From: Candidatus Microgenomatus sp.
GTDB taxonomy: Bacteria > Patescibacteriota > Microgenomatia > UBA1400 > PJMF01
Reading direction: 5' to 3'
Assembly (NCBI GenBank): GCA_020724725.1
Contig: DYGL01000002.1
Coordinates: 1 to 57,020, forward strand
DNA length: 57,020 nt
Part shown: one piece after another, positions 20,801 through 37,992 of the stretch
Layout of the letters: each line of letters begins with the position of its first letter
Position numbering within the stretch: the stretch's first letter is position 1
The notes under the pieces: model-generated
What the model was told of the DNA's origin: nothing
The model's database searches: none
The model's input: only the letters and a program-made list of their open reading frames with translations
Position numbers and translations under genes: made by a program

Positions 20801-23800
20801 TGGTACTACTACAAGAGGTGGTGCTGGTGGAGGTGGCGGTGGAACGCACTCTACAAATAACACCTACCATTCTCGCGGTGGAGGTGGTGGCGGTGGAGGC
20901 TATGGTAGTGCTGGCGCTGGTGGAGGTGCCTGGGGCTACAATGGCGGAAATGGAAGCTTAGATGCTAGCGGCAATGGTGGAAGTGGTTATGTTCCAGATC
21001 ATGCAGGAGGTGGTGGCGGTGGTGGAGGTGGAGCAATTACTACTCCAGATGATTTGTCTAAATTAAGGTTTGGCTCAGGTGGAGGTGGTGGCGGCAATGG
21101 TGAAGTTTATCAGGTGGAATATGCTGGTGGAGCTGGAGGAAGTGGTGGTGGAATTGTTTATATCGCAGCTAACAACATCAGTAACGGTGGCAGTATAAAT
21201 GCAAATGGAGCCAGTGGTGCAGCAGAATCTTGTCATAGTAGTAATTGGTGTGGAGGTGGTGGAGGTGGCGGAGCTGGTGGCTCAGTAAAACTTGTTGCCA
21301 ACTCCATGACTATTGGAGCTAGTTTAGTAAGAGCTGGAGGAGGATCTGGTGGCGGTTCATACTGGATTGGAGGCACAGGCGGTGTCGGTAAAGTCGCTAT
21401 CCACTACTCTGACTCTGTTTCCGGTACTACCTACCCCACTTATCAAGCAGCTGAAGTGCCCAGCTATCACTACTCCATGATGATTTCTGATGAAATTCCA
21501 ACTGCCAACGCTGTCAGTTATGACAAGTTGCGCTGGACTGCTGATCTAGATGACTTTGGTCTGATTACCTTCCAAACTCGCTCCGGACCAACGGACAACT
21601 CTACTGACAATTCTTGGGAGGCTTGGAAACCAGCTGTGGCTAGCACTAATTATTTGACACTAGATAATGCCAATACTCACACTAGCTGGACCAGCACTGC
21701 TGCCACTCTTACTGTTAATGATGGTGATGTGACTAGAGATGTCGATTTCTTTGAAGATGAGGATGAAAGCACTGCTGGCAACGCCACCAAATTGATAATT
21801 AGCTCCAATAATGTCGGTGTTGCGGAGCGCAACATTGGCTCTGCCAACCTGACCAACTACGATTACATCACTTTCTGGGTCTACTCTAGTCGTAGTGGCG
21901 ATAGCATCACCTTGGGTTTTGGTGAAGATCAGGCAGATGAACACGAACAGATGTTCTACATCGAATCGGTTAACACTTGGCAAAAGGTTTACTTTGACAT
22001 CAGCAAAGTACCTAGCCACGAAAAAGATGGGGTGAAGTATTTGCGCATTACACCAACCTACAGCACCAGTTCTTACAACCTCTATTTTGACAACATACAA
22101 GCGGAAAAACTGATGACTGATCCGGCTGGCTCAACCATCGCCTCCAAGCCAAATGAGTATGTTCAATACCGCGCCATCTTAACCAGCACCAAAGATGGTC
22201 ACCACCCCACCCTCTACAACGTCAATCTAGACTGGAACAATGGCTTTAAAGTTGAACAAACCGACTCCAACACCGTTCGCCTCTACAACTACACTGGCGA
22301 CGAACAAAACATGCGCCTTGATGTGATTGTCTTTGGTGCTGACTTGGCTGAGTGGTACACAGTCGAAGATGCCAGCATTGGCCCAGCTGACCTAGTTGCT
22401 ATCACTGGTGAGATGGATGAGTACGGCGTGCCAATTCTGCGCAAGGCAGTTAAGAGCAATGATCCAATGTTAGTCGGTGTCATTTCTACTCAAGCTGGCC
22501 AAGAACTTGGCATTAAAGCAGACAACCGTCGCCTCCTTGCTCTAGATGGTCGTGTGCCGGTCAAAATTGATCCAAGCAGTCCTGCTTTTGAAAAAGGCGA
22601 CCATCTCACTTCTTCTGGTAAACCAGGTTTAGCACGCAAAGCAAAAACCGGAGAACTCAGCATTGGTCGTTCTTTTGAAGCTTGGAAGCCAAATGTTGGT
22701 CAAGAAAAAGTTTTGGTCTTGGTCAACGATGCCATGTCTACTCCATCCTTCAGCGAACAATTAGTTGATGGCGTAGTTGAAATTTCCGATTTGCTCAACC
22801 TCAAGATTCAAGATGGCTGGGAAGTCGTCAATTATGGCACTGGCGAAAGTGTTAAGTCTGCTGCAGCTCTGGCTCAGGCCATTATTGGTCGACTCAAAGC
22901 TGGTCAAATCGAAGTTCAAGAAATCAAAGCTCCAGAAGGAGAAAAGCTAAGTCTGGAAGGTAGCAACATCGCTATCCAGCTTAATGATCAGGAAGCCTCT
23001 GGCAGCACTTCTCTGGGTAAATTGATTATTCAAAATCAAGATGGCCAAACCGTAGCCAGTTTCGATAGTGAAGGCAACGCTTTCATTAGCGGCGATCTGG
23101 ACGTAGAAGGTATTAGTCGCCTTGGTCAACTTCTCAGTAATGAAGCAAGTGTTTCTAGTCTCTTGGCTGAAAACGCTACCGTCTCTGGAGAATTAATTGC
23201 CGGTCGCGTCGAAGCTGAATCAGCTCGCCTTGATTTCATCGAAGGCAAATTAGCTGAACTCGAAAACGCCACCGTCTCTGGCACTCTCTACGCCAACAAT
23301 ATCGAGGCCAATAACATTAATGCTAATGTCATCAGCGGTCTCCAAGAACGACTGACCGGTCAGATTGAAAAAACCCTCAGTGAACCAAGCTTACTAGCCA
23401 GTCTCTTTGGCGAATCTACTCGTCAAACTGAAGAATACTTAGAGCAACTGATGGCAGAAATCAACCAAAATACAAATTCAGCAGATTCGACGACTACTGA
23501 GTTGTCAGACTTAGAAGAAGAAACTCAAGATCTGACTTTAATCGCCGAAAGTGCCTACGTAAATGACTACTTTGAGGTCAACGGCAACGCCATGATCGCC
23601 AATTCTCTCAAGTTAGGTCAAAATTTAATGGTTGGCGAAGGCTTGGTCTTGAGTGAAAACTTCATCAGCTATCAGCCAGACTTTAGTCAAGATTTGGAAC
23701 GCGATCCAAATGATTTCACTTTCTCTATTCAACCAACTGGCATGGGCAAGCTCTCCTTGATGGCTGACTTAATGCAACTTGATGGCCAAGGCTTTGTCAG

Positions 23801-24368: not shown

Positions 24369-27300
24369 TGAGAAAAAAGTGGATCAAACTGCCCCGCCAG
24401 CTGCTCGCTCAAGCCAAAAAAATTGACTTAGTGGCGTGGCGTCCATATTTGTTAGGCTTAGTTGCCGTGACCTTGTTGGCCATTTTGATTGCTTGGATTC
24501 GCCAACTACCTCCCAAAGCTCCCAAATTTAAGGCTCTAGATAATGAGACTTATCAATTTCAAGCCAAAAACAAGCTTTTTAGTAGCAAACTAGGCATTAG
24601 AGAAGAAAAACCGATTGTCTCTTTTAATCTACCAAGTGGCGAAAATCTAGTTTTTTCCTATGCCGAAGCGACTGAAAACCCCAGCTTACAAAATCAGGGT
24701 GATAAAAGCTTGGTTTTCTCTCAAGTCGAAGCTGGAGTCGATTTGCGCTACGAAACACTAGCCAATGGCCTCAAGGAAGAAATCATTCTTCACCAGCCTC
24801 GCCAAAAAGATGAAGATGCTCATGTCTTTACTTTCGACAGCACTTTTCAGGGAGCTTACCCAAAGGAAATAATCGAGGGTTTCTCTGGCAGAGCTTTTTA
24901 TAATCAACAAGGTGAATATCTTTTTCACTTCGAAAAACCATTTGCTATTGATGCATCAGGCAATCGCACTGAGTCCGTAGTCTTACAAATTGAGGAAAAA
25001 AGTAGCTCAAAAATCCCAGACTTGAAGAAAAATGCACAAAATGAACTTGCCTACACTATTCGCCTAACTGTTGATGAAGCTTGGCTTAGCGATCCCGCTC
25101 GCGTCTACCCAATCATCATTGATCCAACCATCGTTCATGATGAAAGTAGTGAATTTGCAACTGGTAGTTTTGGTCGCAGCAAAGACACTGGCTCTGGCTC
25201 TTCACCAAGAATTGAAAGCTATTATCAGGAACTAACTGCCGATCCTCACACCATCGGACTTTGGCATTTCAATGAAACTAGCGGCACTCAGGCTCTAGAT
25301 AAATCAGGTAACAACAATCACGGTATTGCTAGTGGTACTACCATTGTTGATGGTTTGATAAACAAAGCTAGAAGTTTTAATGGTAGCAGTGACTATGTTG
25401 AAGTTGGCGACCTAGATATTATTGATAACACCAAAACCCTTAGCACTTGTGCCTGGGTTTATCACGACAGTGACAGCGCTGACCAAGAAATTATTGCCAA
25501 AGCTGGCACCGGCAATGATGGCTTTCTATTTTTTAGAGACGAAGTTGCTTTCATTAGTGCCAGAACTGATGTTTACACCGCCTTTGTTAGTGATTCTGCT
25601 GACGCAGACAGTACGAGAGTTGAAAGTGTCACTAACGCTGGCTTAGCTAATAGCTGGAATCACCTTTGCATGACTTTTGAAGCTGGCAAAGAACAGGGTC
25701 TAAGACTTTATATCAATGGTCAAGAAGATCCCAATAGTCCAGTGAGCACCACTACTATAGGGGCCATCGATGCTGGCAGTTATCCATTGCGCATTGGAGC
25801 TCATTCGGGAGGCGGATCAATTTTTCATGGAGAAATCGATGAGGTTATAATTTCCAATCGAGTTTTCACCGCCGAAGAAATTAAATCCATGGCCACTCGC
25901 AGTCCTTACTCTACCTACACCTCTCCGGTCATAGATCTGACCGGTGTTAATGCTTGGAACTCTTTTGCTTGGACAGAACTAGGCATCAACACTGGCAATG
26001 GCGAAACACTCAAAGACAACACCAGCTTAGTCGCTCAATGGAATCTCAATGAAACCAGTGGTACCACCGCTACCAACAACGCTGGCTCTTGCGGAGCAAG
26101 TTGCAATGGAACTTTGACTGGTTTTGACAGCACAGCTTCTCAAGATGCTGATCCAGATTCTAGCTGGACTGCCAATAATCGTCGCTGGGGTGCTGGCGCA
26201 CTAACTTTTGATGGAGTTGACACTTATGTCACTATTCCAGATCATAACTCTCTTTCTTTTGGGAGTGGCGGCACCGACTCTCCTTTTAGTATTAGCATGT
26301 GGATCAATCCACGCTCAATAGCCACAACCACTGGAGATTGGCTGATCAATAAAAGAAACGCCGATGCTTCTGATGAGTACCAGATGGTTTTAACTACTGA
26401 TGGCGGCATTTCATTTATTGTTATGTCTGGAAATGCTAATTACATCGGAAGACGTGCCTATAATTTGATTAATCCTGGCGGTTGGTATCACATCGTTGCG
26501 ACCTATGATGGCTCCAAAACAAATGCCGGAATAAAAATCTACATCAATGGCAAAAGAGCTGATTCACTGGATAACAACGTCGGTACCTACACTGGCATGT
26601 CCAATGGACCTCACCCGATTACCCTCGGCAAGCCCGGCTGGACCAGTTCGCTTTATTTTGACGGCACCATGGACGCTGTCTCAATATTTGGCCGCGAGCT
26701 CACTGCCGCCGAAATCCTCTCCAACTACCAAACAGGCAACATTGAACTGCAAACTAGAGTTGGTAGTAGCGCCAATGCTGATGATGGTACTTGGGATGCT
26801 TGGGTGCCTCTGACTAGTGAAGCTCTGCTCAAAAGCTTTGACTTAGACAGAAGTGATAACTGGCTCTACCGTCGCCAAATTCCTATCACTCACACAGGCA
26901 GTGCAGTTACCCAGTATCAAGTCTTGGTTGAGAATTTAGACACAGCAACCTTGATTAGCGCTGGCAAAATGCAAAGTGACTGCGATGATATGAGATTCAC
27001 CAACACTAGTGGCGAGCTACTTAATTACTCAATTATTGGCAACACCTGCAACACCAGCAACACTCAAGTTTGGGTACAAACTGATTCCATTCCTAGCAGT
27101 GGTGGCAACACCATCTATTTATTCTATGGCAATCCTAGCGCTCAAAAGTACTCTGACGAAAACAAGACTTTCAGTTATGCAAGCGAAAAACCTGTTGCCT
27201 ATATTCTGGACAACAGCGTTGATCAGCTAGAATTAATTTCCCTTGCCAATAACAATACCATCACTCACAACTCTGTCACTAGGTCGCTCAATAAATATGC

Positions 27301-30300
27301 TACCAGCAATTTCACTTCCATCAGTCAATTCGGAGTAATTTCTGCTAAAAAACCATTTAATGCCGATGATGCTTCTGATGATACTGATGGCATTGTGCCA
27401 ATTTCAGCTGCTGGCACTGAATTTCTTTTTACAGCTCGCAGCACTGCCACTTATACCTTCTATGCTGTTGCTCCTTGGGGCAATGCTACGGTTGATATCT
27501 ATAATGCTGGAGGCAATTGTACTGGTAATAATGTCACTAGTGCCGGTGCCACTATAAACTGCGCTACTATTGCTGCAGGCGCAGTCAGAATTACTAGTAC
27601 CGTGCCTGTGCTGATTTTTGCTGAAACCACTACCACTGATCCAATGATTCTAAGGCCGGCCTCAATGCAAAAATGGATTGGCACTGGAAATAGAATTACT
27701 TCTGGTGCAAGTGGTGCCGATTACCGTTATTACAGCTCAACTATAGCAACGGAAAACGATCCTGCTGATCTCGGTGCTAACAGCAATGCTACTTTAGCTG
27801 AAAATTCCTACGGTCATGGACCGGCATTTCTGGTTAGAAGCACAAACAACCCAATCGGCTTTAATCAATATGGCGATGGAGATGGAAGCGACGGCATTAT
27901 GCATATGACTTTGCCAGAAATGAGCTCCACTTACGGCTCAGCTGTAGGCAATACCGACTACATTTCTATTGCCTCTGACCAAGCAGCCAACTGTACTCTC
28001 TACAATGCTTCAACTAAAGCAGCGGTCAGTGCCGGTACAGCCACTTCAGCTAACAGTGCAGTTTATTTCTTGGGTTTTGGCACCGGCTCATCAAGCTCAG
28101 TTGTCGCCGCACCATGGTTTATGGAATGCTCTGCTCCAGTGGCGGCCTACTATCAAAAAGGGGCTGACTCAGAATCGGGTCTTTTTGGACCAAGCATGAT
28201 GCGCCAATTCACTTACCCTACCCCAAGCTTGGGAGCGATTGGTAGTGAAGAAAGCATTAGCTCTTATAGTGGCAATTGGATCGAAGTTGCAGCAGAAAAT
28301 CAAAAAAATCTTCAATTCACTAGCGACACTCAAATCAAGATGGAAGGCAGCGCCAGTCAAAAAATAGAACTAGGCTCAACCGCCGTTGATGAACACACCG
28401 TCGGTCTCTGGCATTTTGAAGAGACTGGTGGTAGTGGGGCTTACCTAAAAGACGCTACTGGAAACGCTAATCATGGCACTCCAACTGGAACTAGTCTGGC
28501 AAAAGGAAAAATTGGTAAAAGCAGAAGTTTTAACGGAAGCAGTGATTATGTGGTAGTACCGGCCGGATCAGGGTCAAGCTTAGACATAGATAATAATCCC
28601 GTTACAATTGAGGCATGGGTTAAACCCAACACGCTTAGTGGTGAACAACATATTGTTAGCAGAGGTCAAAGAGGAACAGCTGGTTGGGGCATAGCCATCA
28701 ACTATTCAGCTGGCTTAGCCAATGTTGGACTGCACGGAGGCAGTAATTTTAATGGAACAAGCACCTTAGTTGCTGACAACTGGTATCACATAGCTGGAGT
28801 CATTAATGGCGACAATTCAGCTCTTTATGTAAACGGCAAACTAGAAGCAACAGGGACTGTAAATGTGGTTGCTTCAGACTTAGATTTGCACATCGGCTCA
28901 TCTTGGGATGGATCTACAGAAGCATATTTTTTCGACGGCGAAATCGATGAAGTCCGCATTTCCAACATTGCTCGCTCTGCTGAAGAAATTGCCGAAAGTT
29001 ATCGTTTAGGTAGAGATCAATATTTAAATCAAACAATCTCCTCCACCAACCTTTCGGCACAAAAAACTCTTCCCTTCTATATAGCCGCCGACAAGCCGGG
29101 CTCATATCTACAAGCTACACTTGGTGAGTCAGCTTTTGCCACAGGATTACCAGATAGTAACACTGTTGGCTATTGGAAGATGGATGATGAAAATAGCTCT
29201 AGTGCCACTGGCGGAACTATCACTTATGCCAGTGGCTACACTATTCACACTTTCACTAGTTCTGGATCTTTTGTTACCAACACTCCTGTCAATGCTGAAG
29301 TTTTGGTAGTTGGAGGTGGAGGTGGTGGTGCCAACACTGGCTCTGGAGGAGGTGCAGGCGGCTATGTCTACAAACAAAGTTTTCATGTTCCAAAAGGTGG
29401 TTATCCTATCACAATTGGTGCAGGTGGTGCGGGTGGAGCTTCAACTGGAGCAGCGGGAGCCAAAGGCGGAGATTCAGTTTTTTCCTCCATAACCGCTGAG
29501 GGTGGTGGAGGTGGTGTTACTCACGGAGGCACCGCTGGTGGCAATGGTGGCTCTGGAGGTGGTGGTCCAATTAGAACTGCTGCTCCAACCGCAACCGGAG
29601 GTACTGCTTCTCAGGGCAACGTGGGTGGTGCTGGTTTTGTGCAAGCCAGTTGGACTGGTAATAGCGGCGGTGGTGGTGGTGCGGGTGGTGCAGGAGTTGC
29701 TGGCGGAAATACTGCTGGCACAGGTAATGGTGGTGTTGGTTTGGCTAATTCAATTAGTGGCGCTAGTGTCTACTATGCCGGCGGTGGAGGTGGTGGTGAG
29801 GTTAATGGTAGTTATGTTGGTGCAGGAGGAAATGGAGGTGGTGGCAGTGCAGTTTTAAATGCGGCTGGTGGTAACGGCACCGCTAATACTGGAGGTGGAG
29901 GTGCAGGAGGAAGTTATACCGGCACCTATTTTAATGGTGGCAATGGTGGTTCTGGCATTGTCATAGTCAGATATCCGACTAATACTGCTAGTTATGTAAA
30001 AGATAGTTCTGGCAATAATTTGGATGCCGCTGATAATGGATCGATTTCTAGTACTGGAAAAATAGGCAAAGGCAAATACCTCAATGGCACAAACAATACC
30101 ATTAGTGTTAAAAACAATTCTAAAATCAACATCAATGGTTCTGGCAGTGCTGCCACCATTGAAATGTGGGTTAAGCCAAACACTTTGGTGCCGAGTTGGC
30201 AAAGCATTGTATATAAAAATAGTGGTGGAAATGATGGAAGCGAAACCACTTATAGCGACCGTCAATATGCGATGTGGCTTAATAGCACAGGCTATATACA

Positions 30301-32629
30301 CTTCAATTCAACGTCAGTTAATAATATTGGCGTAGGTCAAACTACATTGAATAGTCCTGCTGGCTTGATAACTGTGGGTAAGTGGCACCACATAGTTGGA
30401 GTCATAGATAGCCCAAATAGCGTAATGAAAATTTACCTTAATGGTCAAGAAGTGGCCAGTGGCGCTTATAGTAACACTGGTATTAGATCAGGCAATGGAG
30501 ATTTGTTTTTTGGTTCTGCTCAAGCAGCTTCAAGCTTCTTCCAAGGCACCATCGACGAAGTCCGCATCTCCAACATCGCCCGTTCAGCTGATGACATTCG
30601 CCAAGCTTATGAATATGGTATGGGCTTGCGTTCTCAACCAATCAGCATCGATTTTGCAGCCAAGCTAGACAGCGCCAATCTGATTGTTGATAGCAATGAT
30701 CTTAGTTTCACCGTTGATGCTACTTATCATGGCCTGAATCAAAAAGGCAGTCAGCTCTTTACCGGTGACAAAATTATTATCAAAGAAAACTACAACGGTA
30801 CAGAATATTTAGCTCAAGGCACCGTTGCTAGTGTAAGTCAAAGCACTGGCGCTACTACAGTCAACGCTTGGGATGCTGGCGCTACTTTCCCACCCAGTGG
30901 TTTCGGTGAAAATGCTAGTGTTTTCAAATGGCAAAGAGTCTACTGGCCCATTGATAATCGCGTTTTAGACTCTCACCTAGACGCAGTCACCAAATTAAAT
31001 CTGCGCGTCACCGATGGTGCTCAGGGAAGAACCATCTGGCTTGATGAACTCAAAAGCGCAGGAGACTACATGAGCAACCCCGCTGGCACCAGCTTGACCA
31101 GCGATACTGGCAACCGCTACTTCCAATACCGCGCCATCATTAACTCTAGTGACGAATCAGTTTCACCATCTCTCAGTAGCACCACTCTCGACTACGTAGC
31201 CAATTCTATCCCCAACACCCCCACTCTCAATAGTCCAGCTGACACTGCCACCAATCAGGGTCCTACCCCTACCCTCCAAACCACAGGAACCGATGATGAT
31301 AGTGATTATCTGCGTTACAAGATTGAACTTTGTACCAATTTAGCTATGACTACTTCATGTCAAACTTTTGACCAAACAAGTAATCAGACTGGTTGGAGTG
31401 GACAAAATACACAGACAAATACTGCTTACACTAGTGGGACTCAAGCTACTTACACTCTGCAAAGTGATTTGTTACCAAATACAACATATTATTGGAGAAG
31501 TTATGCGATGGATCCAGGAGCAACCGGCATTTGGTCTAGCACCCAAGTTAACCCGCGCAGTTTCACTACTTCAGCTGCTCCCAGTTCTCCTTCTGATCTG
31601 CAAACCGAAGGCGCCACCAATCCAACTTCAGTTGGCGATCTCACCCCTGAGTTCTCTGCTATTCACAATGACAGTAATGCTGATGCAGCCACCAGCTACG
31701 AAATTGAGGTCAACACCTCCAGCGATTTTTCTGGCACCGTGATGTGGGACTCTGGTAAACAAAGCATGACTAGCACTGCCAATGGCGCTCGCTCGCCTCA
31801 AATTAGCTATGCTGGCACAGGACTTGCTTTTGATGGTTCGACTTATTATTGGAGAATCAAGTTCTGGGATAGTTTTAACTTTGAAGGTGATTGGTCGGCC
31901 ATCAACAATTTCACTATGAACACTCCTCCGGATGTTCCTGTCTTAGATTCTCCTGCCAATGCTAGTACCGGCGTCACCTTCAAACCCACCCTCCAAACCA
32001 CAGGAACCGATGATGATAGTGATTATCTGCGTTACAAGATTGAACTTTGTACCAATTTAGCTATGACTACTTCATGTCAAACTTTTGACCAAACAAGTAA
32101 TCAGACTGGTTGGAGTGGACAAAATACACAGACAAATACTGCTTACACTAGTGGGACTCAAGCTACTTACACTCTGCAAAGTGATTTGTTACCAAATACA
32201 ACATATTATTGGAGAAGTTATGCGATGGATCCAGCTGGCAGTAATACTTGGTCGGCCACACAAGGCACTCCTAGAAGCTTTACTACCCTCGCTGCCCCTC
32301 TACCTGCCAGCGCTTGCTATCTGCAAAAAAGCATCACCAACGATCAGATTTTAATTAGCTGGACCGACAACGCTAGCAATGAGGATTATTATGAAGTCCA
32401 ACGCAGTGTCAATGGCGGAGCTTGGACCACTCTGCAAAATGGTCTCTCCCCAAACACCACTAGTCTACTGGATACTGGAGTTAGTCCAGACAATACCTAT
32501 CAGTATCGCGTTGCTCCTTATTTCAATGGACCAATGTACGCTTCTTGGTGCGTAGCTAGTCAACTCAACCTTGGAGTGGGTTTATTTAGTCTAGAAGGCA
32601 TCAATGCTAGTGGTCTGCACTTCAACTAA
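24368..32629 (+). CDS. giant membrane-anchored lectin-rich surface protein (2,753 aa): four LamG domains, DUF2341, glycine-rich domain, FN3-like repeats
   Basis: The ATG overlaps the giant-1 stop (TAATG at 24366-24370), and the product has an N-terminal TM helix LLGLVAVTLLAILIAWI. Domains by position:
- LamG_3-type signatures (LWHFNETSG...GxIDEVxISN) at ~25260-25880, 26033-26720, 28408-28990 and 29995-30600.
- 26861-27150: DUF2341 pattern WLYRRQIPIT...DMRFT...VWVQ...LFYGNPSA.
- 29240-29970: glycine-rich domain.
- ~31200-32560: FN3-like repeats. Confidence 0.9.
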   Translation: MRKKWIKLPRQLLAQAKKIDLVAWRPYLLGLVAVTLLAILIAWIRQLPPKAPKFKALDNETYQFQAKNKLFSSKLGIREEKPIVSFNLPSGENLVFSYAEATENPSLQNQGDKSLVFSQVEAGVDLRYETLANGLKEEIILHQPRQKDEDAHVFTFDSTFQGAYPKEIIEGFSGRAFYNQQGEYLFHFEKPFAIDASGNRTESVVLQIEEKSSSKIPDLKKNAQNELAYTIRLTVDEAWLSDPARVYPIIIDPTIVHDESSEFATGSFGRSKDTGSGSSPRIESYYQELTADPHTIGLWHFNETSGTQALDKSGNNNHGIASGTTIVDGLINKARSFNGSSDYVEVGDLDIIDNTKTLSTCAWVYHDSDSADQEIIAKAGTGNDGFLFFRDEVAFISARTDVYTAFVSDSADADSTRVESVTNAGLANSWNHLCMTFEAGKEQGLRLYINGQEDPNSPVSTTTIGAIDAGSYPLRIGAHSGGGSIFHGEIDEVIISNRVFTAEEIKSMATRSPYSTYTSPVIDLTGVNAWNSFAWTELGINTGNGETLKDNTSLVAQWNLNETSGTTATNNAGSCGASCNGTLTGFDSTASQDADPDSSWTANNRRWGAGALTFDGVDTYVTIPDHNSLSFGSGGTDSPFSISMWINPRSIATTTGDWLINKRNADASDEYQMVLTTDGGISFIVMSGNANYIGRRAYNLINPGGWYHIVATYDGSKTNAGIKIYINGKRADSLDNNVGTYTGMSNGPHPITLGKPGWTSSLYFDGTMDAVSIFGRELTAAEILSNYQTGNIELQTRVGSSANADDGTWDAWVPLTSEALLKSFDLDRSDNWLYRRQIPITHTGSAVTQYQVLVENLDTATLISAGKMQSDCDDMRFTNTSGELLNYSIIGNTCNTSNTQVWVQTDSIPSSGGNTIYLFYGNPSAQKYSDENKTFSYASEKPVAYILDNSVDQLELISLANNNTITHNSVTRSLNKYATSNFTSISQFGVISAKKPFNADDASDDTDGIVPISAAGTEFLFTARSTATYTFYAVAPWGNATVDIYNAGGNCTGNNVTSAGATINCATIAAGAVRITSTVPVLIFAETTTTDPMILRPASMQKWIGTGNRITSGASGADYRYYSSTIATENDPADLGANSNATLAENSYGHGPAFLVRSTNNPIGFNQYGDGDGSDGIMHMTLPEMSSTYGSAVGNTDYISIASDQAANCTLYNASTKAAVSAGTATSANSAVYFLGFGTGSSSSVVAAPWFMECSAPVAAYYQKGADSESGLFGPSMMRQFTYPTPSLGAIGSEESISSYSGNWIEVAAENQKNLQFTSDTQIKMEGSASQKIELGSTAVDEHTVGLWHFEETGGSGAYLKDATGNANHGTPTGTSLAKGKIGKSRSFNGSSDYVVVPAGSGSSLDIDNNPVTIEAWVKPNTLSGEQHIVSRGQRGTAGWGIAINYSAGLANVGLHGGSNFNGTSTLVADNWYHIAGVINGDNSALYVNGKLEATGTVNVVASDLDLHIGSSWDGSTEAYFFDGEIDEVRISNIARSAEEIAESYRLGRDQYLNQTISSTNLSAQKTLPFYIAADKPGSYLQATLGESAFATGLPDSNTVGYWKMDDENSSSATGGTITYASGYTIHTFTSSGSFVTNTPVNAEVLVVGGGGGGANTGSGGGAGGYVYKQSFHVPKGGYPITIGAGGAGGASTGAAGAKGGDSVFSSITAEGGGGGVTHGGTAGGNGGSGGGGPIRTAAPTATGGTASQGNVGGAGFVQASWTGNSGGGGGAGGAGVAGGNTAGTGNGGVGLANSISGASVYYAGGGGGGEVNGSYVGAGGNGGGGSAVLNAAGGNGTANTGGGGAGGSYTGTYFNGGNGGSGIVIVRYPTNTASYVKDSSGNNLDAADNGSISSTGKIGKGKYLNGTNNTISVKNNSKININGSGSAATIEMWVKPNTLVPSWQSIVYKNSGGNDGSETTYSDRQYAMWLNSTGYIHFNSTSVNNIGVGQTTLNSPAGLITVGKWHHIVGVIDSPNSVMKIYLNGQEVASGAYSNTGIRSGNGDLFFGSAQAASSFFQGTIDEVRISNIARSADDIRQAYEYGMGLRSQPISIDFAAKLDSANLIVDSNDLSFTVDATYHGLNQKGSQLFTGDKIIIKENYNGTEYLAQGTVASVSQSTGATTVNAWDAGATFPPSGFGENASVFKWQRVYWPIDNRVLDSHLDAVTKLNLRVTDGAQGRTIWLDELKSAGDYMSNPAGTSLTSDTGNRYFQYRAIINSSDESVSPSLSSTTLDYVANSIPNTPTLNSPADTATNQGPTPTLQTTGTDDDSDYLRYKIELCTNLAMTTSCQTFDQTSNQTGWSGQNTQTNTAYTSGTQATYTLQSDLLPNTTYYWRSYAMDPGATGIWSSTQVNPRSFTTSAAPSSPSDLQTEGATNPTSVGDLTPEFSAIHNDSNADAATSYEIEVNTSSDFSGTVMWDSGKQSMTSTANGARSPQISYAGTGLAFDGSTYYWRIKFWDSFNFEGDWSAINNFTMNTPPDVPVLDSPANASTGVTFKPTLQTTGTDDDSDYLRYKIELCTNLAMTTSCQTFDQTSNQTGWSGQNTQTNTAYTSGTQATYTLQSDLLPNTTYYWRSYAMDPAGSNTWSATQGTPRSFTTLAAPLPASACYLQKSITNDQILISWTDNASNEDYYEVQRSVNGGAWTTLQNGLSPNTTSLLDTGVSPDNTYQYRVAPYFNGPMYASWCVASQLNLGVGLFSLEGINASGLHFN
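31271..32234 (+). repeat. 247-bp perfect direct repeat within FN3-like region of giant gene 2
   Basis: 31271-31517 equals 31988-32234 (offset 717, in frame). Both copies encode TLQTTGTDDDSDYLRYKIELCTNLAMTTSCQTFDQTSNQTGWSGQ...NTTYYWRSYAMDP. Alternate-frame track ORFs at 31368 and 32085 start identically. Confidence 0.9.
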
Positions 32630-32645: not shown

Positions 32646-33113
32646 TTAATCTGCGCAAATGTAATAGGTAGATGCCACAGGAGTGGTCACCTGACAAGTG
32701 TTGACGCTTTCTGTGATGTCAGCATCAGAGGCATTTTCCAGCTGAGTAGCAAGCAGGAAATCGTCACCAAAGTCAAGTTGAGCATATTCAAACTGAGTGA
32801 CATCAATCATTTTCTTCATGTAAACATCGTTGCCAACAGCAAAACTACCGTCATCGTTGGGACAATTCAAAGTTCCATCTGTTCCACAACCAACAATGTT
32901 GCCATTATCATCATCAGCTGGATAGGCTTGAAAGTCGTTGTAATACATGCGCAAGGCCACTTTGAGCTGGCGCAAGTCGTTTTTTTTGGCGCTATCACGA
33001 GCACGAGCACGCACGCCGATTAAGTTGGGAAGTAAAACCGCCACCAATACTCCTAGGACAGAAATCACCACCAACAATTCGATTAGAGTAAAAGCGTTTT
33101 TCTTTTTAGCCAT
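32646..33113 (-). CDS. type IV pilin / GspG-like pseudopilin (prepilin N-terminal methylation motif)
   Basis: Leader MAKKKNA followed by FTLIELLVVISVLGVLVAV, then the GspG-like pattern DSAKKNDLRQLKVALRMYYNDFQAYP. Confidence 0.8.
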   Translation of the reverse strand: MAKKKNAFTLIELLVVISVLGVLVAVLLPNLIGVRARARDSAKKNDLRQLKVALRMYYNDFQAYPADDDNGNIVGCGTDGTLNCPNDDGSFAVGNDVYMKKMIDVTQFEYAQLDFGDDFLLATQLENASDADITESVNTCQVTTPVASTYYICAD

Positions 33114-33120
33114 AATTTTC

Positions 33121-33669
33121 TTAATAACTATCTACTATATCTGGTGTGCTGGTCAAATTACTACTCATTACCACATAGTTACAGGTGTTGACCGATAAAA
33201 CAGTATCGATGATTCGGCAATAAGTACCCATGTAGTAGGCTGGCTCCTCATCTAAGTTGCGGGCAATATCCTCATCTTCAGTATTTTCTAAATAGGCAAA
33301 AATACGGTAAGTTGTCCCCTGGGAATCAGAAAGATAAAAATACTGAGATCCACCAGGATCTTGGGGAATTTTACTCATATAAAGTGTAGAGTTTTCAGTA
33401 TTTTGCCAGACATCTCCCCAATTACACTCTTCTGCAGCGTTCTCTCCACAACCCAAAATTTTGCCTGCCGATCCATAAGGATAATGACCATAGTCATTGT
33501 AGTAAAGTTCTAGAGTTTTACTGATGCTTTGCAAATCTTGCTTACGCTTGTTATCTCTGGATTTTTGCTGCACACTGCCAAAAGTCCTCAAGCCCAAACC
33601 TACTAGCAGGGCCATAATCGCCATCACCACCAAAAGTTCAAGTAAAGTAAAGCCGCGTTGTTTTTTCAT
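33121..33669 (-). CDS. type IV pilin / GspG-like pseudopilin
   Basis: Leader MKKQRG followed by FTLLELLVVMAIMALLVGL, then NKRKQDLQSISKTLELYYNDYGHYP. Confidence 0.8.
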   Translation of the reverse strand: MKKQRGFTLLELLVVMAIMALLVGLGLRTFGSVQQKSRDNKRKQDLQSISKTLELYYNDYGHYPYGSAGKILGCGENAAEECNWGDVWQNTENSTLYMSKIPQDPGGSQYFYLSDSQGTTYRIFAYLENTEDEDIARNLDEEPAYYMGTYCRIIDTVLSVNTCNYVVMSSNLTSTPDIVDSY

Positions 33670-33681
33670 AAATAAATAATT

Positions 33682-34392
33682 TTACTGAGGAGCACATGGC
33701 GTCTCACTGTAACACTGACCTACGGAAGTGTAGGGGCCCATATCACAGTTGTTGCCTTGTACCCAGACGTTACAGTCTTGATCGGTTGTGTAAGCAGAAT
33801 TAGCACAGCAGAAGCACAAATGAGTGTCGCAATATTCAGGCACAGCAGTTGGGATGGGCGTGGCAGTGTTGGTTGGTAATGGCGTATTGGTGGGAAAAAC
33901 CGCCCCCTCCAAAACCAAAGGCACGCCTTCAGCAATGCCATAAACATAATTAAGAGTGTTAGGAAACTCAGGGTTGTCTTCTGGTATGCCACAACCCCAC
34001 TGGCAACCAAACTTCTCAATGATTGGATCAGATTTATCATCTAAAATACTCAGCACTCTATACCCCAAGCTATTGTCACCACTACCAGGGAAAGGCATGT
34101 AGAGGTAGGGCTTACCAGTAACTGGGTCGCAAGGCACTTCCTTGAGGTATGGTTGTAGTGATGGACCGTTGCAATCTGCCAAGTATTCTTCAGGAGGATA
34201 AGCACCACGATCATTATAATAATCTTCGAAAGCCAATTTAATGTCGCGCAGATCACTCTTGCGTTGGGCATCATGGGCTCGATTGGTGTCTGTGGTAAAA
34301 ACTCTAAATAAAGCAATTAAAGCCACCATCAAAATCGCCACTACGATCAAGATTTCTATTAGGGTAATGCCTTTTTGCTGCTTCACTTTCAT
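33682..34392 (-). CDS. type IV pilin-like protein with Pro/Thr linker and C-terminal Cys-rich domain
   Basis: Leader MKVKQQKG followed by ITLIEILIVVAILMVALIAL, then QRKSDLRDIKLAFEDYYNDRGAYP. The track ORF extends to 34449. I prefer the internal ATG at 34392 because it gives a canonical short leader; the ATG at 34416 is an alternative. Confidence 0.75.
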   Translation of the reverse strand: MKVKQQKGITLIEILIVVAILMVALIALFRVFTTDTNRAHDAQRKSDLRDIKLAFEDYYNDRGAYPPEEYLADCNGPSLQPYLKEVPCDPVTGKPYLYMPFPGSGDNSLGYRVLSILDDKSDPIIEKFGCQWGCGIPEDNPEFPNTLNYVYGIAEGVPLVLEGAVFPTNTPLPTNTATPIPTAVPEYCDTHLCFCCANSAYTTDQDCNVWVQGNNCDMGPYTSVGQCYSETPCAPQ

Positions 34393-34419
34393 CTTGTTAT
34401 CATTTAATCTTAACATAGG

Positions 34420-34583
34420 CTTACGAGTTTCGCACTTTAAAACAGTCACGCTACACTAAAACTCCTGCTTTACTGAACTAATCTCTTCTTTTCGCTCAGA
34501 GAAGTCGCTGTTAATCACCTAAAGCAAGTTTAAGTTTTTTGTCAGCTCCTTCTATGGACTGTTTGAAGTGCAAAACTCGTAAG
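34420..34583. promoter_or_regulatory. structured intergenic element, copy A (27-bp closing helix plus conserved ~109-nt interior)
   Basis: Arm 34420-34447 (CTTACGAGTTTCGCACTTTAAAACAGTC) pairs with arm 34557-34583 (GACTGTTTGAAGTGCAAAACTCGTAAG), with one mismatch, one G-U pair and one bulge. The interior shares the blocks GAAGTCGCTGT and GTCAGCTCCTTC(T/A)ATGGACT with copy B. Confidence 0.4.
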
Positions 34584-34612
34584 ACAAATATTTGGAAGTG
34601 GAGTGAACAAAA

Positions 34613-36655
34613 ATGAAAGAAAATAGATTAAACACTTTTTTGACTTGGTCTTTGGTAGCAGCGGTGTTTCTCTTGCCCACTTTCTTTGCACCTTATTTCA
34701 TCAATCCACTTATCAATAGTAAACTCCTTTTAGTTCTAGTTATCACTTTGCTGACCAGTGCTGTTTTTATCATCAGCAGTCTCCAAAAAAAGTCATGGGA
34801 ATTAATCAAAACTCCTTTCACTTTGCCTTTGCTGGCTTTCGCTGTGCTGGTTGTGGTCTCTAGCTTGATTAGCCATCAATATCCAAGCAAACAATTTCTG
34901 GGTTTGGGTGGCGCTTATTTAGGCTTTGCTCTGGTGGTTTTATTGGCGCCCAGTTTACTTGAGGGAAGATTTAAGAAGTGGCTAGTTTACGCTTTTAACT
35001 CTGCCGCTATACTTCTTAGCACTCTTTCTATTTTGCAATTGTTCGGTCTAGGTCTAGCTCCGCTTATCAATCGCTTGAGCGTTTTGGACCTACCCAACAG
35101 TTTAGCTTTTTCTCTCAGTGGAGCTACTTTTGTCGGCATTCAATTTTTGTCAGTGGTTTTAATAGCCAATGTTTTTGACCAAAAGGCTTGGAAGGCTTCT
35201 GTTTTTAACAAAGTTACTACGGTTATGATTGCCATTGCTTTGGGGATCAATATCTGGTCCATTTTGCCAGGAGGCGAAGCCCGTTTTCAAAGCCTATCTC
35301 TTTCAGGTAGCGCTGCGATTGCCAAGGACAGTCTGACCTTCACCAAAAATGCCCTCTTTGGCTATGGTCCAGATTCTTATGGCAATGCCTACAATATTCT
35401 CAAGCCAATCTGGATTAATGGTTTTAACTATTGGAAATTCACCTTCGATTCAGCTTTCAACTTCCCTTTGACTGTAATTGTCAGTTTGGGTCTAATTGCC
35501 TTTATTGTCTATCTCTTCTTCTTGTGGCAAGTAGTCAAGACTGTCAAGCAAAGTGATGAGGAAAATATTTTCCTCAAAACTTTGATTTTTGCTGGACTAG
35601 TGTGGCAATTTTTGGCTCCGGTCAACCTAGTCATGTTGGCTATTTTAGGAATCGCTTTGGCTTTCTTTATTAGAGACAACCAAGAACACTACCAGAAGCT
35701 TAACTTCAGTGTTCATCACCTGTCTGATTTCTTCAATCGTGGCAAAGCTCAAGCTAGAAATTACGTCTTTTTAATCAGCAATGGCCTCTTATTGGCTGGT
35801 TTAGTTTTGGTGCTTTATTTCACTGGCAAAACCTTCGTAGCCTATCATCTACTCTATAAGAGCAATGCTAGTGTCAGCAAAAACGAAATTGCTATGGCTT
35901 ATGACTATCACAAGCAAGCCAAGAATCTGGCTCCAGAGCTCGATTTTGTCAGACGCAGCTATTCACTCATCAACTTACAGATTGCCATTGCCTTATCCAA
36001 CAAAGCCGACATTACTCCAGCCGAACAAGAACAAGTCCTACAACTAGTCAATCAAGCCATTCGCGAAGCCAAAGCTGCTACTGTTCTAGATCCAGCCAAT
36101 TACCAAAATTGGTCAGTGCTGGCTCAAATTTACGTCCAACTATCTGGCACGACTGAACAAGCCAAACAAGAAGCTTTCAATGCCTTGGCTCGCGCTGCTA
36201 CTTACAATCCTAATGATCCTGAGATTAGACTGGCTCTAGGTCAACTTTTCTTTAACAGTGAGAAATATTCTGAGGCCATCACTTTCTTCGACCAAGCGAT
36301 TGAGAGAAAACCAGATTTGTTTGTCGCTCACTATTATATGGCTAGAGCCTTTTTGGCCAACAAACAGCTGACAGAGGCCAGAAGTTCACTCATCAACAGT
36401 CTCAACCTCGCTCCTAAAGACAGCGAAGAATACAAAGCCATTGAGAAAGAACTCAACGCTCTTGTAACTGAGATTGAGAGTTTAAATAAAGCCAAAGAAG
36501 ACGGCGTCTCACTTGATAAGCTACCAGCAGCGATTACTGAACCAGTTAATGAAGCCAGCTCCTCAGGTCTCTCTGAGCTTCTAGACGAAAAAGACACAGA
36601 AGCAGTCATTCAAGATGGTGCTCTCAGCTCCGATCAAAGCCTCGTAGAAAATTAA
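34613..36655 (+). CDS. O-antigen ligase-like (Wzy_C) polytopic membrane protein with C-terminal TPR repeats
   Basis: At least 10 predicted TM helices. Periplasmic loop followed by NALFGYGPDSYGNAY, which fits the G-x-G-x-x-F/Y motif typical after Wzy_C. The C-terminal 250 aa has TPR-like helices (YQNWSVLAQIY, AITFFDQAIERKPD, AHYYMARAF). Confidence 0.6.
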   Translation: MKENRLNTFLTWSLVAAVFLLPTFFAPYFINPLINSKLLLVLVITLLTSAVFIISSLQKKSWELIKTPFTLPLLAFAVLVVVSSLISHQYPSKQFLGLGGAYLGFALVVLLAPSLLEGRFKKWLVYAFNSAAILLSTLSILQLFGLGLAPLINRLSVLDLPNSLAFSLSGATFVGIQFLSVVLIANVFDQKAWKASVFNKVTTVMIAIALGINIWSILPGGEARFQSLSLSGSAAIAKDSLTFTKNALFGYGPDSYGNAYNILKPIWINGFNYWKFTFDSAFNFPLTVIVSLGLIAFIVYLFFLWQVVKTVKQSDEENIFLKTLIFAGLVWQFLAPVNLVMLAILGIALAFFIRDNQEHYQKLNFSVHHLSDFFNRGKAQARNYVFLISNGLLLAGLVLVLYFTGKTFVAYHLLYKSNASVSKNEIAMAYDYHKQAKNLAPELDFVRRSYSLINLQIAIALSNKADITPAEQEQVLQLVNQAIREAKAATVLDPANYQNWSVLAQIYVQLSGTTEQAKQEAFNALARAATYNPNDPEIRLALGQLFFNSEKYSEAITFFDQAIERKPDLFVAHYYMARAFLANKQLTEARSSLINSLNLAPKDSEEYKAIEKELNALVTEIESLNKAKEDGVSLDKLPAAITEPVNEASSSGLSELLDEKDTEAVIQDGALSSDQSLVEN

Positions 36656-36661
36656 TCTCTT

Positions 36662-37825
36662 TTAAAGCGTCGAAGCGACGGCTTTTTTGACTTCTTCCAA
36701 ACCTTCGTTGGTAACTGTGCTAAAAAATATCAAATTCACATCTTTATCTATAAAATATGATCTAAATACATCTAATTGCTCAGAAGTGTATAAATCTATC
36801 TTATTAAGTGTCACAATGACTTGCTTTTGCAGCATTTTCTCATCATAATCAGCTAGTTCGTGGCGCAACTGTTCGTATTGTCGCCACAACATTTTTGCTT
36901 TTTCTAAGTCGCTAACGCCCTCATCAAAAACCACTGCCTCTTCCAAGAAGAGCACAAACATCAAACTTTGGCAGTTTTCAATGTGACGCAAGAAATCCAA
37001 ACCCAAACCCTTGCCCTGACTAGCTCCCTCAATCAAACCAGGAACATCAGCCACCACTAACTCGTCCTTGCCCTGATCAAAACCAAGATGCATAATGCCC
37101 AGATTGGGCTCGATTGTAGTAAATGGATAATTGGCAATTTTGGGGTTGGCCCTAGTAACTTTAGAAAGAAAAGTGCTTTTACCAGCATTAGGAAAACCAA
37201 CCAAGCCTAGGTCAGCTAAGAGTTTGAGCTCTAGTTGAACGAGTTTTTGTTCACCAAAACCACCATACTCTGCTTCCAAAGGAGTTGTTTTAACTGATGA
37301 TTTGAAATGAACGCTGCCCCGTCCCCCCTTACCGCCTTGGCAAACCAAAAACTCTTGATTTGCTTCTTTAAATACAAAAAGCTCGAGTTTTTCCTCAAAA
37401 ACTTCCAGCTGATTATCTGGATCTCTTGGTGGAATACCCTGATTTTCATCTTCTAGATAATATTTGCCACCGCTAATAAATTCTTCAGATAGCAAAGAGT
37501 TGTTTCTTCTCTTCTTGGCAATTTGGTTTTCTGCCAAAAGATAAATTACAGTGCCAATTGGCACCTCTAGAATTTTATCCTCACCTTTTTCACCAAATTT
37601 CTTGCGACGGCCACCATTTTGACCTCTTTGGGCTTTAACCAGTTTGACTCCCGCAAAATCTCGCAGCGTTGTGAGACCAGCCTTACTGCGAATTAGAATT
37701 GAACCACCATCGCCACCATCGCCACCATCAGGACCACCTTTGGTGACAAATTTCTCGCGACGAAAAGAAACTTTTCCGTCTCCTCCATCACCAGCTGCTA
37801 AAGTTAATTTGACTAGATCGATCAT
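36662..37825 (-). CDS. obg: GTPase Obg
   Basis: Obg fold GDGGDGKVSFRREKFVTKGGPDGGDGGDGGSI, G1 motif GFPNAGKST, G3 motif DVPGLIEGA. There is a ~60-aa insertion in the N-terminal domain. Confidence 0.9.
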   Translation of the reverse strand: MIDLVKLTLAAGDGGDGKVSFRREKFVTKGGPDGGDGGDGGSILIRSKAGLTTLRDFAGVKLVKAQRGQNGGRRKKFGEKGEDKILEVPIGTVIYLLAENQIAKKRRNNSLLSEEFISGGKYYLEDENQGIPPRDPDNQLEVFEEKLELFVFKEANQEFLVCQGGKGGRGSVHFKSSVKTTPLEAEYGGFGEQKLVQLELKLLADLGLVGFPNAGKSTFLSKVTRANPKIANYPFTTIEPNLGIMHLGFDQGKDELVVADVPGLIEGASQGKGLGLDFLRHIENCQSLMFVLFLEEAVVFDEGVSDLEKAKMLWRQYEQLRHELADYDEKMLQKQVIVTLNKIDLYTSEQLDVFRSYFIDKDVNLIFFSTVTNEGLEEVKKAVASTL

Positions 37826-37992
37826 TCGTAAACCTTTTTATATTTTCTTAGCCACATTCGACTAAACCCATCACTTCTTTTAGAAACAATCTTTTTCTCA
37901 TTCAGTGAAGTCGCTGTATATTATCCCATACATCCTTTATATTTGTTAGTCAGCTCCTTCAATGGACTAAGAAAATATAAAAAGGTTTACGA
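37826..37992. promoter_or_regulatory. structured intergenic element, copy B (26-bp perfect closing helix directly abutting obg start codon)
   Basis: Arm 37826-37851 (TCGTAAACCTTTTTATATTTTCTTAG) is the exact reverse complement of arm 37967-37992. The interior carries the same conserved blocks as copy A, with similar spacing. Confidence 0.4.

Follow-up and report, generated by a model that had tools for sequence, protein, structure and literature searches.

A dispersed family of inserted intergenic elements with covarying arms and a conserved structured core in Patescibacteria

We describe a family of ~165-nt non-coding elements, two copies of which, A and B, lie in a 57,020-nt stretch of DNA from Candidatus Microgenomatus sp. 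(assembly GCA_020724725.1, contig DYGL01000002.1, positions 1 to 57,020 of the forward strand), referred to below as the window. The elements combine a conserved core with long complementary arms whose sequence differs from copy to copy, which is the reverse of the usual layout of miniature inverted-repeat transposable elements (MITEs), and their structure is supported by covariation and absent from Rfam. Comparison with close relatives indicates that the element is inserted DNA, polymorphic in its presence and absence, and that it lands precisely in the gap between a promoter and the start codon of an essential gene, together with a ribosome-binding tail of its own. The best explanation, in which we have moderate confidence, is a mobile, MITE-like leader element, which in the mRNA would fold into a hairpin of the RNase III type. 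Neither an Rfam match nor, in the literature that we searched for this element, a description was found, so that the family is uncatalogued. The genomes of Patescibacteria are smaller than 1 Mb and tightly packed, and to our knowledge almost nothing is known of their non-coding RNAs and small mobile elements.

Copy A occupies positions 34420-34583 (164 nt) and copy B positions 37826-37992, where a preliminary description, made from the sequence alone, had placed a recurring ~165-nt element; both copies were recovered, with arms of 27-28 nt and interiors of 109 and 111 nt. All features of the two copies are given for the plus strand. The closing helix of copy A, P1, is formed by a 28-nt 5' arm (34420..34447, CTTACGAGTTTCGCACTTTAAAACAGTC) and a 27-nt 3' arm (34557..34583), which are joined by 25 Watson-Crick pairs, one A·C pair, one mismatch and one bulge. 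The interior (34448-34556, 109 nt) begins with the P2 domain (34448..34496), composed of a covarying 2-bp clamp (G34450-C34495 and C34451-G34494), conserved ACUAAAA and AAUCU/pyrimidine-rich strands and a variable loop. This is followed by the 5' strand of P3 (34497..34510, CA-G-A-GAAG-UC-GCUG), the hairpin P4 (34511..34542), which differs in length and sequence among copies, and the 3' strand of P3 (34543..34556, CAGC-UC-CUUC-U-A-UG), the minus-strand complement of which includes AAGGAG. Joined to the 3' arm is an A-rich 29-nt tail (34584..34612) with GGAG at 34600-34603, 9 nt before the ATG at 34613. Copy B has a 28-nt 5' arm (37826..37853), a core of 111 nt (37854..37964) with GAAGTCGCTG at 37907-37916, CAGCTCCTTC at 37951-37960 and a degenerate P2b region, and a 28-nt 3' arm (37965..37992); its P1 consists of 27 Watson-Crick pairs and one A·C pair.

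The conserved blocks of the two interiors occur in the same order, as had been proposed; the 19-mer GTCAGCTCCTTCWATGGAC matches twice in the window against an expectation of 0.01, and two exact matches were found for TCAGWGAAGTCGCTGT. Arm identity between A and B is just 38%, yet each arm is complementary to its own partner. Both copies fold on both strands with z-scores of -6.3 to -10, a stability that was reached by none of 200 shuffled sequences, and the minus strand folds slightly better (-60 and -54.8 kcal/mol for the two copies). In a scan of the window against Rfam 15, the sole matches to reach the threshold were two tRNAs, and none lay over the elements, for which the best match was a miRNA-precursor model with 21 bits against a threshold of 195 (E-values up to 10).

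A covariance-model search, which had been suggested as a check on the two copies, showed together with pattern scans that further copies exist. When one genome per species was scanned with an exact pattern, 20 copies turned up in about nine metagenome-assembled genomes (MAGs); metagenome contigs yielded three more members and syntenic loci four, and the covariance model R1 added one divergent copy, located after groEL, and one mini copy without P3 and P4. A loosened pattern was also run on metagenomes; among the 120 matches listed, 7 were real members, which retain TC/TC, and the rest were mostly chance. In total, the family comprises 30 full members, which form the alignment used below, together with a mini copy and a truncated remnant. 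Element length is 153-175 bp, with a conserved core of ~110 nt, and a genome probably carries ~5-10 diverged copies; at least five were found in CP011212 and at least six in MAG MiH-14oct19-109, at unrelated intergenic sites. Arm identity between paralogues is 25-67%. The two window copies score lowest among the full copies save for the groEL-adjacent one, copy B being the second-lowest with 131 bits. This divergent copy (L086:4870-5027; loci are given by our L numbers) lies directly 3' of the groEL stop codon and is followed by 668 nt of apparently non-coding DNA. The mini copy (L018:3982-4080), which has arms and a P2 domain, is situated between nrdR and a ribonucleotide reductase gene, with a full copy 18 nt away, and its strand is ambiguous (27.6 versus 22.8 bits). 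All members found so far are treated as belonging to one clade of MAGs from Patescibacteria (the candidate phyla radiation, CPR), because the element-bearing MAGs show synteny with the window and encode homologues of proteins named Patescibacteria or Woesebacteria. The NCBI labels of these MAGs conflict (TM6, Parcubacteria, Pacebacteria and 'uncultured Pseudomonadales'), and some must be wrong. A link with phages was rejected, since all six matches in viral contigs were chance matches in coding DNA.

The predicted plus-strand fold of the core is a three-way junction of P2, P3 and P4 that is closed by P1. Across the 30 copies, standard pairs occupy 93.9% of the cells, compared to 71.7% in column shuffles, none of 500 of which scored as high, and there are 293 cells with a double change where 89 were expected. 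When the partner strand was slid by 1-3 columns, pairing was at most 44%. The preliminary description had deduced a selected secondary structure from arms that differ and still pair, and the covariation extends this from two sequences to 30 homologues. P1 is 20-31 bp long, 92% Watson-Crick and copy-specific in sequence; double changes occur at 24 of the 25 modelled pairs, and only the four junction-proximal pairs are conserved family-wide, the outer arm ends not being conserved. In the core, the P2 clamp is GU/AC, GC/GC or AU/AU and is 98% paired. The consensus P3 is CA-W-GAAG-UC-GCUG paired with CAGC-UC-CUUC-W'-UG, and the pair flanking GAAG/CUUC (A34500-U34553 in copy A) is U-A in 21 copies and A-U in nine. 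The 2x2 internal loop UC/UC of P3 is invariant in 29 of the 30 copies. In the copy adjacent to groEL it is replaced by Watson-Crick pairs, and because of this P3 can be regarded as a real helix in which CUCCUU is not indispensable. The P2b stem is weakly supported, with 85% pairing and U·G pairs on the plus strand.

The arms of orthologous copies change much faster than the adjacent coding DNA while remaining paired. Between the orthologous copies of L086 and L015, 14 of 25 pairs were changed on both sides and none on one side, and between L034 and copy B these numbers were 12 and one; in closer orthologue pairs, one-sided changes come first. In P1, G·U pairs are favoured on neither strand, with 8 G·U versus 17 A·C in 746 cells. 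A small open reading frame (ORF) was considered for either strand and rejected, as the variable loops shift the length out of frame and there is no conserved start codon.

Throughout the family, the strand that corresponds to the window's plus strand is the sense strand. At ~16 of 23 independent sites a co-oriented gene begins 10-30 nt past the 3' arm, and where the upstream gene is co-oriented, it stops either at the 5' arm or within it. A perfect TATAAT ends 3-4 nt before the first paired base of the 5' arm at four independent sites, against ~0.04 expected from the hexamer frequency in these loci, three times in the form TGnTATAAT, and therefore transcripts would begin at the base of P1. The core helices hold 22 G·U pairs on the plus strand versus 11 A·C pairs, the latter being G·U on the minus strand, and four of these 11 come from the degenerate P2b of copy B. 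Some copies lie in 3' untranslated regions (UTRs) or in antisense. The genes downstream are unrelated housekeeping genes with no pathway in common. They encode Ddl, tyrosyl-tRNA synthetase (TyrRS, tyrS), class I lysyl-tRNA synthetase (LysRS, lysS), an IleRS-type protein, GyrB and GrpE, and further a class II ribonucleotide reductase (nrd), a SufS-like protein, a tyrosine recombinase, a PduO-type ATR, a holA-like protein, a TPR protein and unknowns. At L012:3822-3850, L020 and L013:2240-2256, divergently oriented neighbour genes have a TATAAT ~6-9 nt before their own ATG, which suggests that leaderless mRNAs are common in this clade.

The gain of a copy can be followed at site A. The gene downstream of copy A (34613..36655, plus strand) encodes a 680-aa membrane/TPR protein with orthologues in conserved synteny. 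The preliminary description had labelled it a Wzy_C gene, an assignment without support in Pfam, which yields TPR families only, at the C-terminus, and nothing for residues 1-480; a sub-threshold Wzy_C match belongs to another element-associated gene, in L004. Nine syntenic loci were retrieved via orthologues of the 680-aa protein. Of nine syntenic relatives with the pilin and TPR-protein genes back to back, eight lack copy A. In these, L148-L155 (protein identity 55-94%), site A is empty and reads ...TTAACATAG(G/A)ATGAAAG... (AACATAG(G/A)ATG) or, in the two relatives nearest to the window, ...AACATAAGATG.... The window itself has AACATAGG separated from the ATG by 193 nt (34420-34612), corresponding to the 164-nt element and the 29-nt tail, so that the insertion lies exactly at the boundary of the 5' UTR and the start codon at 34613. 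The site is empty even in a 94%-identical relative. The independent runs X1, X2 and X3 contain the filled site, and another strain of the same study has the empty form. Taken together, these comparisons indicate that copy A was gained in the window lineage only. No other contig in the source metagenomes matched copy A at 82% or more as a possible donor. Upstream of the insertion lie promoter-like boxes on the plus strand (34395..34416), namely TGTTATCAT at 34395-34403 and TAACAT at 34411-34416, which also occur in the empty sites of relatives and thus pre-existed; a consensus scan gave no full sigma-70 match, and they are putative promoter boxes of the 34613 gene.

Site B shows stages of decay. 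Here copy B lies antisense to obg (36662..37825, minus strand), which encodes the Obg GTPase (Pfam GTP1_OBG, 5e-44) and has its start codon abutting the element. Six genomes carry the element here in one and the same antisense orientation (the window, L034, L149, L150, L153 and L154); the site is empty in L148 and in L151, and L152 and L155 keep only the 3' half. In the distant relatives L156 and L157, obg and an M23 peptidase gene are 2 nt apart without an element. The copies of L149 and L153 are mutated at otherwise invariant core positions. Copy B is thus an old insertion, now in decay in some relatives. The host seems to have co-opted the other strand of this copy. The complement of the 5' arm holds the AAAGG Shine-Dalgarno (SD) site of obg, and a promoter scan found a promoter-like CTAACA-N18-(TG)GATAAT facing obg (37920..37949, minus strand). 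This CTAACA-N18-TGGGATAAT box lies within P4 of copy B and probably serves as the promoter of obg. In L155:5441-5546 and L152:13198-13303, which belong to the two relatives nearest to the window, the 5' 91 nt of the element are deleted and replaced by GGCTT, leaving the box 5 nt before the obg ATG, a deletion that would make the obg mRNA leaderless or near-leaderless. We also considered whether the arms are a duplicated target. At site B, the outer 5' arm is homologous to the obg SD spacer of L148, a likeness for which a deletion sparing the SD site is an equally good explanation, and at site A the idea is refuted by an empty site without any arm sequence. With an insertion dated at one site only, copy A, and graded states of decay at copy B, the two loci provide material on the birth and death of such elements.

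These observations can be joined in a mechanism. Most copies are in sense orientation; preceded by a promoter or by the stop codon of an upstream gene, and followed by a start codon, they would be transcribed as a 5' leader or an intercistronic spacer. The long stem would pair the extreme 5' end of the transcript into a double-stranded helix of at least 20 bp, and the predicted stem may act as an RNase III-type processing or stability signal. Bacterial RNase III needs roughly two turns of double-stranded RNA, a length that is reached by the 20-31 bp of P1, and a helix at the 5' end is a known protection from 5'-end-dependent decay. The tail and the ribosome-binding site would remain single-stranded, the SD-bearing tail being supplied by the element itself. 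Transcription would pass through, and the element would be tolerated, and possibly exploited, when it lies in sense within 5' leaders and intercistronic spacers. If RNase III indeed processes the element, a reduced genome would possess in it a portable signal for mRNA maturation.

Several results weigh against this mobile leader element. No terminal sequence is common to the copies. At site A, the single site that can be tested, comparison with eight empty sites revealed no target-site duplication beyond an ambiguity of 1-2 nt. No transposase was present among the 8-22-kb loci examined, and no autonomous partner was found. Core identity within genomes is 75-83%, and 73% for copy A and its nearest relative, so there are no near-identical paralogues. 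Conserved antisense copies occur at two independent sites, obg and the mevalonate operon of L038. A conserved core of 110 nt far exceeds what a simple RNase III hairpin needs, and the changes in P1, together with its lack of a wobble preference, fit equally well with the compensatory evolution of an RNA helix and with arm-to-arm correction of a DNA palindrome. Finally, no metatranscriptome contig spanned an element in the data available, which are sparse and unstranded. Because neither a partner nor near-identical paralogues were found, mobility would be rare, ancient or by recombination, rather than by transposition.

Known repeat families share parts of this picture. MITEs are defined by terminal inverted repeats common to all copies and by flanking direct repeats, and bcr1 of Bacillus cereus (~155 bp) is transcribed and has a long hairpin that is kept by compensatory changes (PMC3184786). 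Like bcr1 and the enterobacterial ERIC and RU repeats, the elements described here are small, non-coding, dispersed intergenic repeats with a patchy distribution among related strains and compensated stems. They share with MITEs the small size, the lack of coding capacity, the multiple dispersed copies and the polymorphic presence. However, the terminal inverted repeats are not shared among copies, target-site duplication is absent at the one site, the interior rather than the ends is conserved, between long copy-specific arms, and the paralogues are old (75-83%). Because of the missing shared terminal repeats and target duplication and the reversed conservation pattern, we do not file the family as a member of the MITEs. 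The preliminary description had denied that the pairing is that of a transposon terminal inverted repeat; it was right that the arms are not shared terminal inverted repeats, but the DNA is inserted, and polymorphic in presence and absence.

The closest functional analogy to the proposed mechanism may be found in the Correia elements (CREE) of Neisseria. These are 100-155 bp long, are inserted upstream of many unrelated genes and are co-transcribed with them; the hairpins made by their paired ends are sensitive to RNase III, and promoters are supplied by some of them. They differ from the present family in having a conserved terminal repeat of 26 bp, a target duplication of TA and copies that number in the hundreds and are nearly identical. 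The copies described here are diverged (~5-10 per genome), with variable arms around a conserved, structured core. A second parallel is given by the RNase III processing stems of rRNA operons and the intercistronic R sites of phage T7, where long flanking helices are co-transcribed and the stem is free to covary. The likeness lies in a long helix, here of 20-31 bp, between genes or at the 5' end, but such stems are not mobile, and they do not occur as multi-copy paralogues that hold a conserved three-way junction of 110 nt.

As a possible but unlikely alternative, the element may be a plus-strand cis-regulatory leader RNA of the host, for instance a riboswitch or an operator to which a protein or the ribosome binds, that puts growth genes under one signal and has spread by recombination. 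It has in common with riboswitches that a covarying structured core lies in sense upstream of genes, and this core holds conserved unpaired nucleotides, short covarying helices and G·U pairs on the plus strand. The spacing to promoters and start codons is fixed, orthologous copies have been retained across genomes with 55-70% protein identity, and growth functions are found downstream, including three aminoacyl-tRNA synthetase genes, gyrB, nrd, grpE and the holA-like gene. What is lacking is a coherent gene set, and the unrelated downstream genes therefore argue against a ligand-specific riboswitch. In addition, with 20-31 bp the closing helix is probably much too stable to work as a switching P1, and we found neither an alternative terminator nor a platform for sequestering the SD or anti-SD sequence. 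The copies are dispensable, as A is absent from 94%-identical relatives and B has been deleted or halved with obg kept, and the copies in 3' UTRs or in antisense do not fit with a role as leader.

It is rather unlikely, in our estimate, that the three-way-junction core is more than the cargo of a decaying repeat and represents a new functional RNA or folded-DNA module of CPR bacteria, which could take two forms. In one, the core could be a self-processing or protein-recruiting RNA that is freed by the stem, perhaps as a mimic of the 3' end of 16S rRNA. This is based on a marginal resemblance, in which GUGAAGUCG (34499-34507) and UCA(G/C)CUCCUU (34543-34556 region) align with positions 1489-1497 and 1532-1541 of E. 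coli 16S rRNA and the CUCCUU strand resembles the anti-SD sequence. As eight of 300 shuffles were as good, we treat this mimicry as a lead only. In the other form, the core could serve for recognition in a mobility system that is specific for structure and accepts any arm sequence, comparable to attC but outside integrons. Should the core have an activity or a partner of its own, it would constitute a new RNA class. Two motifs of other systems, a 10-mer of the hairpin ribozyme (CAGAGAAGUC) and CIRCE half-sites in the arms of L008, were rejected, since they neither fit the pairing nor are conserved in the family.

The resemblance to attC leads to an alternative at the DNA level, in which a folded strand or cruciform is the substrate of a structure-specific recombinase or nuclease and the arms are kept complementary by intramolecular template switching and not by selection on RNA. 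We consider this quite improbable, notwithstanding that the 92% Watson-Crick P1 without wobble preference on either strand would be in agreement with it, as would arms that diverge faster than neighbouring coding DNA and stay paired, including runs of adjacent changes. As in attC and the attP hairpin of phage CTX, the structure is conserved without the stem sequence and there is no target duplication. Integron attC sites have conserved R''/R' outer boxes, form arrays next to intI and have variable centres. In our family the conservation pattern is the opposite, conserved RYYYAAC / GTTRRRY ends are absent, and each copy stands alone amid housekeeping genes; we saw neither attC-type R'/R'' core sites nor arrays nor linkage to an integrase. 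A tyrosine recombinase gene (Phage_integrase family) abuts the element at two of ~23 independent sites, as the downstream gene in L003 and as the upstream gene in L002/L015/L086:7353-8219, an adjacency that could be cited in favour of a DNA-level function. Against it stands the strong bias in orientation and in spacing to promoters and start codons, which points to a role in gene expression, or a filter imposed by it. Moreover, palindrome correction can produce neither the covariation nor the plus-strand G·U pairs of the short core helices. No orientation flips were seen, one orientation being found throughout four orthologue groups and four independent re-assemblies. This also led us to reject an invertible promoter, as far as contigs can tell, in which rare variants are invisible.

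Very unlikely, in our view, is a stand-alone small RNA, possibly self-processing or catalytic, that is excised from the mRNA by stem cleavage in the way that rRNAs are released from their processing stems. The stem does join the 5' and 3' ends of the 110-nt three-way junction, and the copies are multiple and strongly conserved in the core. The weak collinear likeness to the 16S rRNA 3' end, with GUGAAGUCG ... UCA[G/C]CUCCUU at the same spacing, might be added, but in local alignment it is no better than a reverse-strand control. Rfam offers no ribozyme or small RNA match, there are copies after stop codons without a promoter of their own, no copy has a terminator, and the copies are dispensable.

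The least credible alternative is the one put forward by the preliminary description, a minus-strand 5' leader of the pilin operon and obg with AAGGAG as an SD-like sequence, for although genes start 0-3 nt from the 5' arm at A, B, L034 and L038, the minus strand folds slightly better and would hold tandem G·A pairs in P3, and the obg SD site and the box facing obg lie within copy B, only two of ~23 independent sites are antisense within an operon, ~16 have their gene on the other side and strand, and the downstream genes, the -10 boxes and the core G·U pairs all favour the plus strand. The AAGGAG is merely the complement of the conserved CUCCUU strand of P3, lies ~130 nt from either start codon and has been replaced in one member. 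Copy A serves the 34613 gene, against whose ATG the insertion is set, and the pilin-side sequence is identical in element-free relatives. That gene starts adjoin the arms was correct insofar as an in-frame ATG at 34416 is separated by 3 nt from the arm of copy A and the obg ATG at 37825 directly adjoins that of copy B; the former is already present in relatives without the element, and the probable pilin start is the ATG at 34392, which would give a prepilin leader (MKVKQQKG, then ITLIE).

This pilin gene belongs to a group of three type IV pilin-like genes on the minus strand (32646-34392), which come after two abutting giant ORFs on the plus strand (11808-24368, 4186 aa, and 24368-32629, 2753 aa). 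Orthologues of the giant ORFs carry Laminin_G_3, Gly_rich_2 and Ig-like domains. The two tRNA genes in the window, tRNA-Pro(CGG) at 594-668 and tRNA-Arg(CCU) at 855-927, are its sole Rfam or ARAGORN matches.

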